Of a DNA stretch of 64,000 nt, positions 10,371 to 61,746 are shown in pieces; within the stretch, counting starts at the first letter, position 1, and each line of letters begins with the position of its first letter. The stretch lies in the sequence record OL631482.1. One strand, written 5' to 3'. The translations under genes were made by a program, and so were the position numbers. The notes under the pieces are model-generated. The model worked only from the letters and a program-made list of their open reading frames with translations. It did no database searches and was not told where the DNA came from. Source of the stretch: Escherichia phage ECML-359.

Positions 10371-10412
10371 TTGCTTTAAAACAATCAGTGTTATAATGGT
10401 TCTAGACCTTTT
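10371..10412 (+). promoter_or_regulatory. MotA-box middle-promoter-like element (TTGCTTTA-N13-TATAAT-GGTTCTAGACC), antisense to flanking genes
   Basis: exact promoter architecture on plus strand in the gap between minus-strand genes 3 and 2. Confidence 0.5.
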
Positions 10413-10443
10413 GTCCTTACCAATAACACTGACCGATAATAGA

Positions 10444-32632: not shown

Positions 32633-34612
32633 ATGGCTTTATTATCCCCGGGCATTGAGCTCAAAGAAACAACGGTACAAAGCACTGTTGTTCGTAACGC
32701 GACGGGTCGTGCGGCGCTGGTTGGTAAATTCCAGTGGGGCCCAGCTTTCCAGGTAACTCAAATTACAAACGAAGTTGAACTTGTTGATTTGTTTGGTGGT
32801 CCGAATAATGAAACAGCAGATTACTTTATGAGTGGGATGAACTTCCTGCAATATGGTAACGACCTCCGTACTGTACGTGTTGTTAACCGTGACGAAGCTA
32901 AAAACGCATCCCCTATTGCTGGCAATATTGAAACTACCATCGTAACTGCTGGTACAAACTATGCTGTCGGTGATGTTATTCAGGTTAAACACAACCAGAC
33001 TGTTGTTGAACCGGCTGGCCGTGTGACCAAGGTCGACGTTGATGGTAAAATTCAGGCAATCTTTATTCCTACCGATAAGATTATTGCATTTGCCAAAACT
33101 ATTAACCAGTATCCTAATTTAGGTAGTGCATGGACTGCAGAAGTTACGACCACTTCTTCCGGTGTATCTGGTACCATTACTGTTGGGAAAATTGTTACCG
33201 ATTCTGGCATTCTGTTGACTGAAGCAGAAAACAGTGAAGAAGCAATTACTTCCCTGGAATTCCAGGCATCACTGGCAAAATATGCAATGCCGGGTGTTGT
33301 TGCTCTTTACCCAGGCGAAATCGGTTCGACTCTGGAAGTTGAAATCGTATCTAAAGCTGAATTTGAAAAAGGCGCAGCTGCAAATCTGAATATTTTCCCG
33401 GGCGGCGGAACGCGTGCTTCTGTGGCTCGTGCCGTGTTTAACTATGGCCCTCAGTCTGAAAACCAATATGCAATTATCGTTCGCCGCGATGGTGCAATCG
33501 TCGAAAACGTTGTTTTGTCTACCAAGCAGGGCGAAAAAGATGTTTACGGTAATAACATTTATCTGGATGACTACTTTGCAAAAGGTACTTCCAACTACAT
33601 CTATGCAACATCTCGCAACTGGCCTGTAGGCTTCAGTGGTATCATCAATCTGTCTGGTGGTATTTCTGCAAACGATAAGATTACCGCTGGTGATTTGATG
33701 CAAGGTTGGGACCTGTTTGCTGACCGTGAAGCACTGCATATTAACCTGCTTATCGCTGGTGCAGTAGCTGGTGAAGGTGATGCGACTGCTTCCACTGTTC
33801 AGAAACACGTGGTTTCTATTGCTGACGAACGTCAGGATTGTCTGGCATTTATTTCCCCGCCGAAAGGTCTGTTGGTTAACGTTCCTCTGACCCGTGCAGT
33901 GGATAACCTGATTGACTGGCGTACAGGTGCTGGCGCATTTGATACTGATAACATGAATATCAGCACGACTTATGCAGCGATTGATGGCAACTATAAATAT
34001 CAGTATGATAAATATAATGACGTTAACCGTTGGGTTCCTCTGGCAGCTGATATGGCTGGTCTGTGTGCTCGTACTGATGACGTTTCTCAGCCTTGGATGT
34101 CTCCGGCCGGTTATAACCGCGGTCAGATTCTGAACGTTCTGAAATTGGCTGTTGAACCACGTCAGACCCAACGTGACCGCATGTATCAAGAAGCTATCAA
34201 CCCGGTTGTTGGTTTCGCAGGTGGTGATGGTTTTGTTCTGTATGGTGATAAGACTGCAACTAAAGTTCCATCTCCGATGGACCATATTAACGTTCGTCGT
34301 CTTACGAATATGCTGAAGAAAAATATCGGTGATGCATCTAAATATAAACTGTTTGAGCTTAACGATAACTTCACTCGTGCATCATTCCGTATGGAAACTT
34401 CTCAATACTTGGATGGTATTCGTGCACTTGGTGGCATTTATGAAGGTCGTGTAGTTTGTGATACTACTAACAACACCCCGTCGGTCATAGACCGAAATGA
34501 GTTTGTTGCTAGCATTTATTTTAAACCTGCACGCAGCATCAACTACATCACTCTTAACTTCGTAGCCACTAGCACTGGTGCTGATTTTGATGAGCTGATT
34601 GGGCCACAATAA
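32633..34612 (+). CDS. 18: tail sheath protein gp18
   Basis: MALLSPGIELKET...; 659 aa. Confidence 0.95.
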   Translation: MALLSPGIELKETTVQSTVVRNATGRAALVGKFQWGPAFQVTQITNEVELVDLFGGPNNETADYFMSGMNFLQYGNDLRTVRVVNRDEAKNASPIAGNIETTIVTAGTNYAVGDVIQVKHNQTVVEPAGRVTKVDVDGKIQAIFIPTDKIIAFAKTINQYPNLGSAWTAEVTTTSSGVSGTITVGKIVTDSGILLTEAENSEEAITSLEFQASLAKYAMPGVVALYPGEIGSTLEVEIVSKAEFEKGAAANLNIFPGGGTRASVARAVFNYGPQSENQYAIIVRRDGAIVENVVLSTKQGEKDVYGNNIYLDDYFAKGTSNYIYATSRNWPVGFSGIINLSGGISANDKITAGDLMQGWDLFADREALHINLLIAGAVAGEGDATASTVQKHVVSIADERQDCLAFISPPKGLLVNVPLTRAVDNLIDWRTGAGAFDTDNMNISTTYAAIDGNYKYQYDKYNDVNRWVPLAADMAGLCARTDDVSQPWMSPAGYNRGQILNVLKLAVEPRQTQRDRMYQEAINPVVGFAGGDGFVLYGDKTATKVPSPMDHINVRRLTNMLKKNIGDASKYKLFELNDNFTRASFRMETSQYLDGIRALGGIYEGRVVCDTTNNTPSVIDRNEFVASIYFKPARSINYITLNFVATSTGADFDELIGPQ

Positions 34613-34636
34613 TTATCATCGCTTAGAATGAATTAA

Positions 34637-34688
34637 TCAGTTAGAAACCGTAGAACCATTATACAGTGGTATAAATAAAAGCATAATC
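34637..34688 (-). promoter_or_regulatory. middle-promoter-like element inside a stem-loop, antisense to gene 18
   Basis: minus-strand reading: TGCTTTTA-N12-TATAAT-GGTTCTACGG; inverted repeat accgtagaacc / ggttctacgg. Confidence 0.45.
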
Positions 34689-34756
34689 GGTTCTACGGGC
34701 TCCTGTGGTTGATTCTGGGAAGCCATTATCTTGAGATGATGAATCATATTACCTAG

Positions 34757-34764
34757 TATAAATA
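34757..34764 (+). promoter_or_regulatory. late promoter TATAAATA (gene 19)
   Basis: exact TATAAATA; AAAGAGGA RBS before ATG at 34817. Confidence 0.6.
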
Positions 34765-34816
34765 CATGCATCAGGGACGCGTTCGCGCGACCTGTGTCTA
34801 TAAAGAGGATTCCTTA

Positions 34817-35308
34817 ATGGAGTTGACCGATATCACACGCGCTTTCGAATCCGGCGACTTTGCTCGCCCTAACCTGTTCGAAGTCGAAATCCCATTCCTG
34901 GGTAAAAACTTTGCTTTCCATTGTAAAGCAGCCCCGATGCCTGCTGGCATTGTAGAAAAAGTTCCTGTCGGTTACATGAACCGTAAAATCAACGTTGCGG
35001 GCGACCGTACATTTGATGACTGGACTATTACGATTTATAACGACGATGCTCATAAAGTTCGTCAAGCAATTGTTGATTGGCAAAACCTGTGTCACGGTAT
35101 GACTAACGAAATCACCGGTGCAGCTCCTGCTGATTATAAGAAAACTGCTACTGTCCGCCAGTTCCATCGTGATGGCAAGACCGTTACGAAAGAAGTTGTT
35201 ATTACCGGCATGTGGCCAACCAACGTTGGGGAAGTCCAGATGGATTGGGACAGTAACAACGAAATTGAAACGTTCGAAGCAACGTTTGCAATTGACTGGT
35301 GGGAATAA
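34817..35308 (+). CDS. 19: tail tube protein gp19
   Basis: ORF track 34766..35308 trimmed to MELTDITRAFESGDFARPNLFEVEI...; 163 aa. Confidence 0.95.
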   Translation: MELTDITRAFESGDFARPNLFEVEIPFLGKNFAFHCKAAPMPAGIVEKVPVGYMNRKINVAGDRTFDDWTITIYNDDAHKVRQAIVDWQNLCHGMTNEITGAAPADYKKTATVRQFHRDGKTVTKEVVITGMWPTNVGEVQMDWDSNNEIETFEATFAIDWWE

Positions 35309-44808: not shown

Positions 44809-44847
44809 GGGTCTAGAACCATTATACCGCATTTTTATTTGAAGCAA
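44809..44847 (-). promoter_or_regulatory. MotA-box middle promoter (TTGCTTCA-N13-TATAAT-GGTTCTAGACCC) for rnlB
   Basis: motif upstream of rnlB in sense orientation. Confidence 0.55.
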
Positions 44848-49677: not shown

Positions 49678-50111
49678 TATTTGCCTGCCTCGAATTGTCT
49701 TATTTCTAACATATGTTTAAGTGCGAAACTTCGCGACTTAACACCATCTAATGCAGCGCTACAGAAGTCCTGGAGTAGTGCCCAATACTGAATTGAAGTA
49801 TCAATCTTCAGTATGTTTGAATCTGCTGCCATGACTGTTTTCAATTCCGACTTCTCGTATACATCCATGCATACTTCTTCCCCTGGGTCACCTCTTCCCG
49901 TATAATGGTCTAGTCGTTTTTTCAGTGCAGTTTTCTTCTGAATCTCAAGACGCATTATTTCTTTCTTGCAGTTGGTATACAATCTCAACCATTTGCTATG
50001 CAACAAAACGTTGTTTTGTGTTTCATATTGAAGTTGCGTACCATCAATTTTTAAATCTGCATCTAACTCATCCTGAAAGACTTCTAACTTATATTCAATC
50101 TCTGTTTTCAT
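49677..50111 (-). CDS. uvsY: recombination mediator UvsY
   Basis: ORF track 49677..50141 trimmed to MKTEIEYKLEVFQDELDADLKIDGTQLQYE...KSRSFALKHMLEIRQFEAGK; the extended N-terminus lies in the promoter element. Confidence 0.9.
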   Translation of the reverse strand: MKTEIEYKLEVFQDELDADLKIDGTQLQYETQNNVLLHSKWLRLYTNCKKEIMRLEIQKKTALKKRLDHYTGRGDPGEEVCMDVYEKSELKTVMAADSNILKIDTSIQYWALLQDFCSAALDGVKSRSFALKHMLEIRQFEAGK

Positions 50112-50127
50112 AATGTATCCAATGTAA

Positions 50128-50166
50128 GGGTCTAGAACCATTATACAGCCATAAAATTAAAGCATT
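50128..50166 (-). promoter_or_regulatory. MotA-box middle promoter upstream of uvsY (oriF-like position)
   Basis: minus-strand reading AATGCTTTTA-N12-TATAAT-GGTTCTAGACCC. Confidence 0.55.
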
Positions 50167-51195: not shown

Positions 51196-51207
51196 TATTT
51201 ATAAATA
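51196..51207. promoter_or_regulatory. divergent overlapping late promoters (TATAAATA on both strands) for genes 26 and 51
   Basis: tatttataaata reads TATAAATA in both directions. Confidence 0.55.
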
Positions 51208-61464: not shown

Positions 61465-61746
61465 TTAGTCGTTGACTCTATTATATGCCACGTCTTCCAA
61501 AAGCAAATCCAGCCGCTTATGATAAGTGAACACAAATTTAGTTGCCCCGTCTGGTTTCATTTTGGTCATGAAGTGAATATAGATAAATCCTTGCTCAACG
61601 CATTCACGCCAAACGGGGTTATCTTTAGCCGGATTAATATCAAACGAGTAATTATGATTCACATGACGAATAAACTGATTAACATGACCGTAATCCATCG
61701 TGGTAGTTGGACCATGGTCAGAAATAGTATGAACGACAAACATCAA
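61465..61746 (-). CDS. gp30.1-like hypothetical protein
   Basis: 93-aa ORF; ATGA overlap with upstream gene. Confidence 0.6.
   Translation of the reverse strand: MMFVVHTISDHGPTTTMDYGHVNQFIRHVNHNYSFDINPAKDNPVWRECVEQGFIYIHFMTKMKPDGATKFVFTYHKRLDLLLEDVAYNRVND

Follow-up and report, generated by a model that had tools for sequence, protein, structure and literature searches.

The spacer between the tail sheath gene (gene 18) and the tail tube gene (gene 19) of Escherichia phage ECML-359 raises the question of what a middle promoter does when it points back into a late gene and serves no gene of its own. We analysed a window of 64,000 nucleotides from this phage (record OL631482.1), and coordinates below refer to the window unless a relative is named. 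A sequence-only reading had described, at 34637-34688, a second antisense copy of the uvsY middle promoter that is embedded in a stem-loop, overlaps late signals and likely also terminates gene 18. Our analysis gives good support, from the sequence and from comparison with relatives, to an antisense MotA-type middle promoter that is nested in a hairpin and overlaid on late signals.

The element and its surroundings

The window belongs to a Gaprivervirus of the VR7/VR20/SP18 group. A 1.4-kb query around the element matched pEC-M719-6WT.2, VR20, VR25, SP18 and VR7 (Gaprivervirus) at 92-99% identity. The window corresponds to about 64.7-128.7 kb of VR20 (curated record KP007360), and the two are 97.5% identical over the region of the element. 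Gene 18 (32633-34612, plus strand) encodes a tail sheath protein of 659 aa and was assigned from the ORF list, five Pfam tail-sheath domains and the VR20 annotation. Gene 19 (34817-35308, plus strand) encodes a tail tube protein of 163 aa and was assigned from the ORF list and Pfam. The spacer between them is 204 bp long (34613-34816). AsiA and MotA are both annotated in VR20; their genes lie outside the window, and their presence here rests on this relative.

On the minus strand, positions 34686-34651 read TTATGCTTTT, 13 nt, TATAAT and GGTTCTA. Published MotA-dependent middle promoters have a box (a/t)(a/t)(a/t)TGCTTtA near -30 and a -10 sequence TAtaaT at a distance of 12 +/- 1 bp. The putative MotA box TTATGCTTTT (34677-34686, minus strand) agrees with the consensus wwwTGCTTtA at nine of ten positions, the final A being replaced by T. 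It is followed by a promoter spacer of 13 nt (34664-34676), a distance that is counted from the published 7-nt core TGCTTtA and lies inside the 12 +/- 1 rule, and by a perfect -10 hexamer TATAAT (34658-34663). The sequence-only reading had written the element as TGCTTTTA (34683-34676), 12 nt, TATAAT (34663-34658) and GGTTCTACGG (34657-34648), directed backward into gene 18. Each of these sequence statements holds, and the element does face the 3′ end of gene 18. Transcription is predicted to start at the A at 34651, because in T4 both PuvsY (115371) and P34i (153011) have their mapped start on an A seven nt after TATAAT.

The promoter pattern with at most one mismatch occurs three times in the window, against 0.05 expected. 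At the element, a promoter scan gave no -35/-10 pair of the sigma70 type for the minus strand. The plus strand has a sigma70-like match (CATAAT) in the loop; in the VR7 group an indel of 2 nt abolishes this match and leaves the minus-strand box intact. The TGCTTTT variant of the box is used at sense promoters as well, since TTTGCTTTTggaagacgtggcaTATAAT sits upstream of the gene 30 homologue. The sequence TTTGCTTTTggaagacgtggcaTATAAT (61480-61505, minus strand) has the form of an ordinary sense middle-type promoter 5′ of this gene (DNA ligase).

The plus strand carries two late-promoter boxes, one in the loop and one at 34757, as had been noticed earlier. Late box 1 (TATAAATA, 34670-34677) stands back-to-back with the middle promoter, and its reverse complement is contained in the promoter spacer. 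Late box 2 (TATAAATA, 34757-34764), assigned to gene 19, lies 87 bp further on and is conserved, with 4 of 71 columns variable in 34746-34816. The predicted starts of the middle promoter and of late box 1 diverge by about 30 bp, and the superposition of middle, antisense and late signals that had been proposed for this place is borne out. In the window TATAAATA occurs 21 times (4.6 expected), and all 14 boxes between 21 and 48 kb are on the plus strand. In the divergent spacer of genes 26 and 51 (51196-51207), two opposite-strand TATAAATA boxes share 4 nt (TATTTATAAATA) and look like compact divergent late promoters. The gene 19 leader, just 3′ of late box 2, contains a UUCG-tetraloop hairpin (34772-34794, plus strand; CAGG-GA-CGCG-UUCG-CGCG-A-CCUG); in relatives UACG replaces UUCG, and TH57 has a G.U change.

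Other copies of the promoter

The exact 13-mer TATAATGGTTCTA of the element occurs four times in the window (0.00 expected) and five times in the complete VR20 genome, a count that was taken from the whole assembled sequence. Every copy is preceded at 12-13 nt by a MotA box, which is of the TGCTT type in the four copies of the window. One of them is the uvsY promoter, AATGCTTTA-12-TATAATGGTTCTAGACC (50133-50164, minus strand), in the gene 25/uvsY spacer and at the position of T4 PuvsY/oriF. It stands directly 5′ of an ORF with a UvsY Pfam match (2e-50), which confirms that the 18/19 element is the same element as that upstream of uvsY. Another copy is found upstream of rnlB in sense orientation (44814-44846, minus strand). 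The remaining copy, in the gene 3/gene 2 spacer (10372-10404, plus strand), is antisense to gene 2, since genes 3 and 2 are both on the minus strand. The 18/19 element had been called a second antisense copy; another antisense copy does exist, but it is the one between genes 3 and 2 and not the uvsY promoter. The fifth copy in VR20 (KP007360, 11024, plus strand) lies in the srd/modA spacer, is antisense to the early gene modA and has a degenerate box, ACGCTTTTA. VR20 gene 34 holds an antisense close variant, TTTGCTTCA-13-TATAATGGTCCCAGAG, in which the 16-mer TATAATGGTCCCAGAG (from TATAAT to GAG) is identical to that of T4 P34i, the oriG promoter.

The three orphans, the copies that face no gene of their own, have their predicted starts past the stop codon of the gene they face, by 39 nt at gene 18, 40 nt at gene 2 and 11 nt at modA (VR20). 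The flanking repeat that surrounds the 18/19 promoter is found at this one of the five family copies. The gene 2/3 orphan is kept in at least five T4-like genera including T4, down to 54% gp3 identity. The T4 copy is AATGCTTTA-13-TATAATGGGTCTAAGTCC (L321 1466-1501; T4 about 75,965-76,000). Its start is predicted near 76,000, and the 58 mapped T4 middle promoters tabulated in 2010 do not include it. In a small sample, the start-site segment of the gene 2/3 orphan agrees with the uvsY promoter of the same genome at 10, 11 and 9 of 12 positions, compared with 5-9 of 12 for the orthologue in other genera. This resemblance within a genome does not clearly extend to the 18/19 copy. The gene 2/3 orphan also overlaps a 10-bp inverted repeat (10385-10394 and 10423-10432).

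Several features of the uvsY and rnlB-side promoters were seen in passing. The 17-mer TATAATGGTTCTAGACC is common to the rnlB-side promoter, the uvsY promoter and the gene 2/3 orphan. At the predicted start site of the rnlB-side and uvsY promoters, GGTTCTAGACC forms a near-palindrome with the centre TCTAGA. The longest uvsY ORF and the VR20 annotation (114575) both begin at an ATG within TATAATGG of the uvsY promoter; translation of uvsY probably starts instead at the ATG at 50111, which shortens the ORF by 10 codons.

The hairpin around the promoter

The promoter is enclosed by an inverted repeat of 10 nt with 100% complementarity and 31 nt between the arms. The left arm CCGTAGAACC (34648-34657) reads GGTTCTACGG on the minus strand, where it supplies the promoter's discriminator and start-site segment; the right arm GGTTCTACGG lies at 34689-34698. 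The stem can be extended by ATTAT/ATAAT with one bulged C. The repeat reported by the sequence-only reading is therefore present and does enclose the promoter, but the leading "a" given for it is unpaired, and since the right arm spans 34689-34698 the element ends at 34698 and not at 34688. Against shuffled sequences the fold has a z-score of -3.8 for RNA and, for DNA of either strand, of about -4, and the fold energies of the plus and minus strands do not discriminate between them. A longer predicted stem joins the flanks around the hairpin (34622-34719, plus strand), at -32 to -37 kcal/mol in insert-free genomes and, much weaker, at -23 kcal/mol in the VR7 group.

Fourteen of the 15 hairpin pairs never vary within the group. 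The remaining one shows a C-G to U-G change, caused by C->T in the left arm of L084, and this gives G.U on the plus strand and A.C on the minus strand. Because the arms are invariant within the group, covariation is uninformative either way. Rfam covariance models gave no match up to E = 1 over 34200-35000 on both strands.

It had been suggested that the repeat likely also terminates gene 18. Canonical features lend this no support: the loop is long (20-31 nt) and the plus-strand tail after the stem, GCTCCTGTGG, has no T-run, so that the stem is not a canonical intrinsic terminator. A terminator scan flagged a weak alternative hairpin here and nothing else, at a frequency expected by chance (4 found, 2.8 expected). 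The stem could form only in RNAs that cross the spacer, namely late gene 18 read-through mRNA, because the transcript of the middle promoter would carry just one arm. By analogy with the T4 hairpin at the matching position, a late-mRNA 3′ stem-loop is a plausible role for it.

Comparative analysis

The spacer is carried by 33 phage records, and those listed are all Gapriverviruses. A metagenome scan with gp19 added one further group member, L084. The island that comprises the repeat and promoter was aligned in 10 arm-bearing genomes, and 12 sequences were compared across two genera. The island is 51 nt long; among the 10 genomes its arms, -10 hexamer, late box and MotA core are free of variable columns, and the promoter spacer varies at 2 of 13. 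Its flanks vary at 23 of 36 and 26 of 47 columns. The -10 region GTATAATGG (minus strand) is the sole block that is invariant in all 12 sequences.

VR26 lacks both arms and retains ATTATAccgtgtTATAAATAAAAGCA. In JS98-like phages, whose gp19 is 93% identical, the spacer is otherwise unalignable and there is no late box at that place, and their minus strand reads ACGCTGTAA-13-TATAATGGTTTTA. This architecture matches that of their own uvsY promoter, TTGCTGTTC-13-TATAATGGTCCTA. The core is enclosed by an unrelated stem, ATCCCAGGC/GCCTGGGAT, and the MotA box at this place is degenerate (CGCTGTA). The uvsY and 18/19 elements of JS98-like phages share a GCTGT box, which we considered as a variant of the MotA box throughout the lineage; this was rejected, as a normal TGCTTAA box stands at their gene 2/3 copy. 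In more distant genera, the corresponding position has the hairpin and the late box alone. Together, these comparative results argue that the core of the minus-strand promoter is selected, and not only the hairpin or the late box. Part of the conservation of the island could serve the plus strand, late box 1 being inside it.

In VR7, DK-13 and TH57, a 201-codon ORF (gp19.1; VR7, L002 2181-2786) lies between gene 18 and the island. VR26 has a related ORF (L006 814-1497) between the island and gene 19. The inserted ORFs belong to phrog_5104, are free-standing and have no Pfam match and a weak endonuclease VII-like match; related insertions are also present in the JS98-like L014 and in the more distant relative L012. 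Since related ORFs are inserted on either side of the island, the gene 18/19 spacer is an insertion hot spot.

Among Gapriverviruses, gene 18 reaches its greatest synonymous divergence in the last 40 or so codons (34490-34609), at 0.30 compared with a mean of 0.13. A constrained antisense RNA, visible as suppression of synonymous changes at the 3′ end of gene 18, was considered and rejected, as the opposite was seen. The body of the transcript is thus unconstrained, which fits a role that does not depend on its sequence (R-loop priming, cis-antisense pairing or interference) or no role. The divergence peak (34490-34612) adjoins the insertion hot spot, and it may reflect recombination or co-conversion tracts. 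From +1 to +50 the A+T content is 64% at the 18/19 copy and 70% at the uvsY copy, for a window mean of 59%, values that do not discriminate for an unwinding element.

Discussion

We think it rather likely that a functional middle promoter, dependent on MotA and AsiA and without a gene of its own, is carried by the minus strand of the 18/19 spacer. RNA polymerase with AsiA-remodelled sigma70, together with MotA on TTATGCTTTT at about -30, would use TATAAT at 34663-34658, start at A 34651 and proceed leftward, entering the 3′ end of gene 18 after 38 nt of A+T-rich spacer. This would yield a prereplicative RNA that is not translated. Because the middle promoter is back-to-back with late box 1, the same DNA would be used leftward in the middle period and rightward late. 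As to the function of this RNA, priming of replication through an R-loop would be favoured by analogy with T4 P34i/oriG and PuvsY/oriF, with antisense pairing a close second. An origin-type role of the element is nevertheless put forward tentatively. More speculative, and in our view rather doubtful, is the idea that the TATAATGG-YYYA class (the uvsY, gene 2/3, 18/19, srd/modA and rnlB copies and the gene 34 variant) forms a dedicated subclass of middle promoters whose conserved start-site segment marks R-loop primer transcripts; the 18/19 copy would then be an origin acquired by the Gaprivervirus/JS98 clade and the gene 2/3 copy an unrecognised general origin-type promoter. Against activity of the promoter stand the final T of its MotA box, the degenerate JS98-like box and the missing counterpart in T4. 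Excellent-looking middle promoters can be silent, as T4 GATT boxes are. A literature search on VR7/JS98 and on Gaprivervirus/Dhakavirus found no promoter, transcript, 5′-end or replication maps.

The promoter may instead be active and produce a cis-antisense ("anti-late") RNA, which would either base-pair with gene 18 mRNA at its 3′ end or hinder transcription through the junction of genes 18 and 19, and thereby tune when or how much sheath is made relative to tube. We regard this as possible, with some doubt. Antisense transcription is documented for T4 gene 32. The orphans are placed just past the stop codon of the gene they face, a geometry that suits antisense pairing at the 3′ end, and a cis-antisense RNA is complementary whatever its sequence, which is compatible with an unconstrained gene 18 3′ end. 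Early anti-late RNA was described for T4 in the literature of the 1970s. To our knowledge, however, no function has ever been assigned to it, which counts against the antisense reading. Middle promoters also switch off as late transcription starts, which would leave such an RNA little time together with gene 18 mRNA, and an untranslated antisense RNA would likely be stopped early by Rho.

It is unlikely that the plus strand alone matters here, with a stem-loop after gene 18 (as 3′ end or stabiliser of late mRNA) and late promoter 1 as the functional parts and a fortuitous or inactive promoter on the minus strand. T4 and other genera do have a hairpin and then TATAAATA at the same place with the minus-strand element absent, and part of the MotA box comes "free" because it abuts the reverse complement of TATAAATA. 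The RNA fold of the plus-strand hairpin is significant, and the L084 change still pairs on the plus strand and is a mismatch on the minus strand. However, the loop positions ATTATAC and AAAGCATA are invariant although neither the hairpin nor the late box needs them, and they persist in VR26, which has lost the arms, and in JS98-like phages, which have lost the late box. The identity over 13 nt to four other MotA-type promoters, for which the chance expectation is about 0, also speaks against a fortuitous match.

We consider it quite improbable that the island is a landmark of recombination or mobility, whether as a PmSL-like cassette, as a target or boundary of phrog_5104 ORFs, or as the relic promoter of a lost minus-strand ORF. 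In favour of such a landmark, phrog_5104 ORFs lie left of the island in VR7, DK-13 and TH57 and right of it in VR26, with L014 and L012 as similar cases; gene 18 synonymous divergence peaks beside the spacer; and PeSL and PmSL cassettes are tied to indels in T4-like genomes. In those cassettes, however, the stem-loop is 5′ of the promoter and the next ORF is driven via a Shine-Dalgarno sequence, whereas the present promoter sits in the loop with no ORF in front of it. The strand of the inserted ORFs is the opposite one, four of the five family copies have no flanking repeat, and retention in two genera speaks against a decaying relic.

Expression of a small protein from a 75-codon ORF inside gene 18 (34609-34382, minus strand) is highly improbable: the frame is open in six of six Gapriverviruses examined, but it starts with TTG without a Shine-Dalgarno sequence, and we reject a coding role for the minus-strand transcript because stop codons interrupt the ORF in JS98-like phages, where the promoter is retained, and in every more distant relative, and because its product varies freely, tracking the synonymous sites of gene 18.

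The preferred reading, a working middle promoter that serves no gene, may bear on how T4-like phages choose their origins. Among the T4 origins, which have no sequence motif in common, oriF and oriG are the only ones that are understood, each with a MotA promoter, an unwinding element and an R-loop primer. The open questions of the field include the control of R-loop formation and the choice of origin. The near-identical MotA-type promoters described here, one at the uvsY/oriF position and three orphans, are a compact and testable set. Should the orphans prime replication, this would reveal gain or movement of origins among T4 relatives and connect a motif at the start site with the function of origins. 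Should they act through antisense RNA, a defined promoter would become known for the long-described anti-late RNA. If neither applies, the element is merely a well-conserved extra promoter.

Relation to known systems

PeSL and PmSL elements (RB49/phi1, PST, nt-1) are linked to ORF indels, including in core regions, and PmSLs have a TGCTT Mot box and a -10 sequence. Like the 18/19 element, they are short composites of a promoter and a stem-loop. They occur in many copies and in hyperplastic regions with the stem 5′ of the promoter, whereas the 18/19 promoter is antisense and in the loop, and one of its five family copies has a stem. We therefore rejected the element as a PeSL/PmSL cassette, since its promoter is in the loop with no downstream ORF; the likeness is superficial.

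The T4 18/19 spacer (116 bp) shares with the present one two plus-strand TATAAATA boxes and a stem-loop just past the gene 18 stop. It differs in having two small tight hairpins (GGCCTG/CAGGCC), each with TATAAATA after the stem, and the minus-strand MotA element was not found in it. The 2010 table of 58 T4 middle promoters lists none between 75,393 and 109,763. Because a plain hairpin stands at this place in T4 and in other genera, the stem is probably older and the promoter a later addition specific to the lineage.

The gene 2/3 orphan resembles the 18/19 element in its promoter class, in facing the 3′ end of a late gene, in a start about 40 nt past the stop codon and in its inverted repeat. 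It is far more widely conserved and occurs in T4 as well; the 18/19 copy is limited to Gaprivervirus and JS98-like phages. The uvsY promoter of the window shares TATAATGGTTCTA with the 18/19 element at 13 of 13 nt, with the MotA box at an equal distance. The two differ in that PuvsY also expresses uvsY while the 18/19 copy is an orphan, and after +1 they read GACC and CGG, respectively. In T4, PuvsY doubles as an R-loop origin.

The minimal T4 oriF and oriG each consist of a middle promoter and an A+T-rich downstream element, about 100 bp in all, and in the T4 GenBank record the oriG primer RNA runs opposite the late gene 34. The 18/19 element has the middle promoter of such an origin at the sequence level, with no positional homology to any mapped T4 origin. 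It appears to be specific to its lineage, with T4 P34i/oriG as the closest analogue. P34i lies within a coding sequence and the 18/19 element in an intergenic hairpin, without positional homology, and origin activity is proven for oriG whereas the 18/19 element is a candidate. Both are MotA-type promoters that are antisense to a late structural gene and express no gene, and P34i (TTTGCTTCA-13-TATAATGGTCCCA) has the same spacing, the same TATAATGGT and the same start on A as the 18/19 element.
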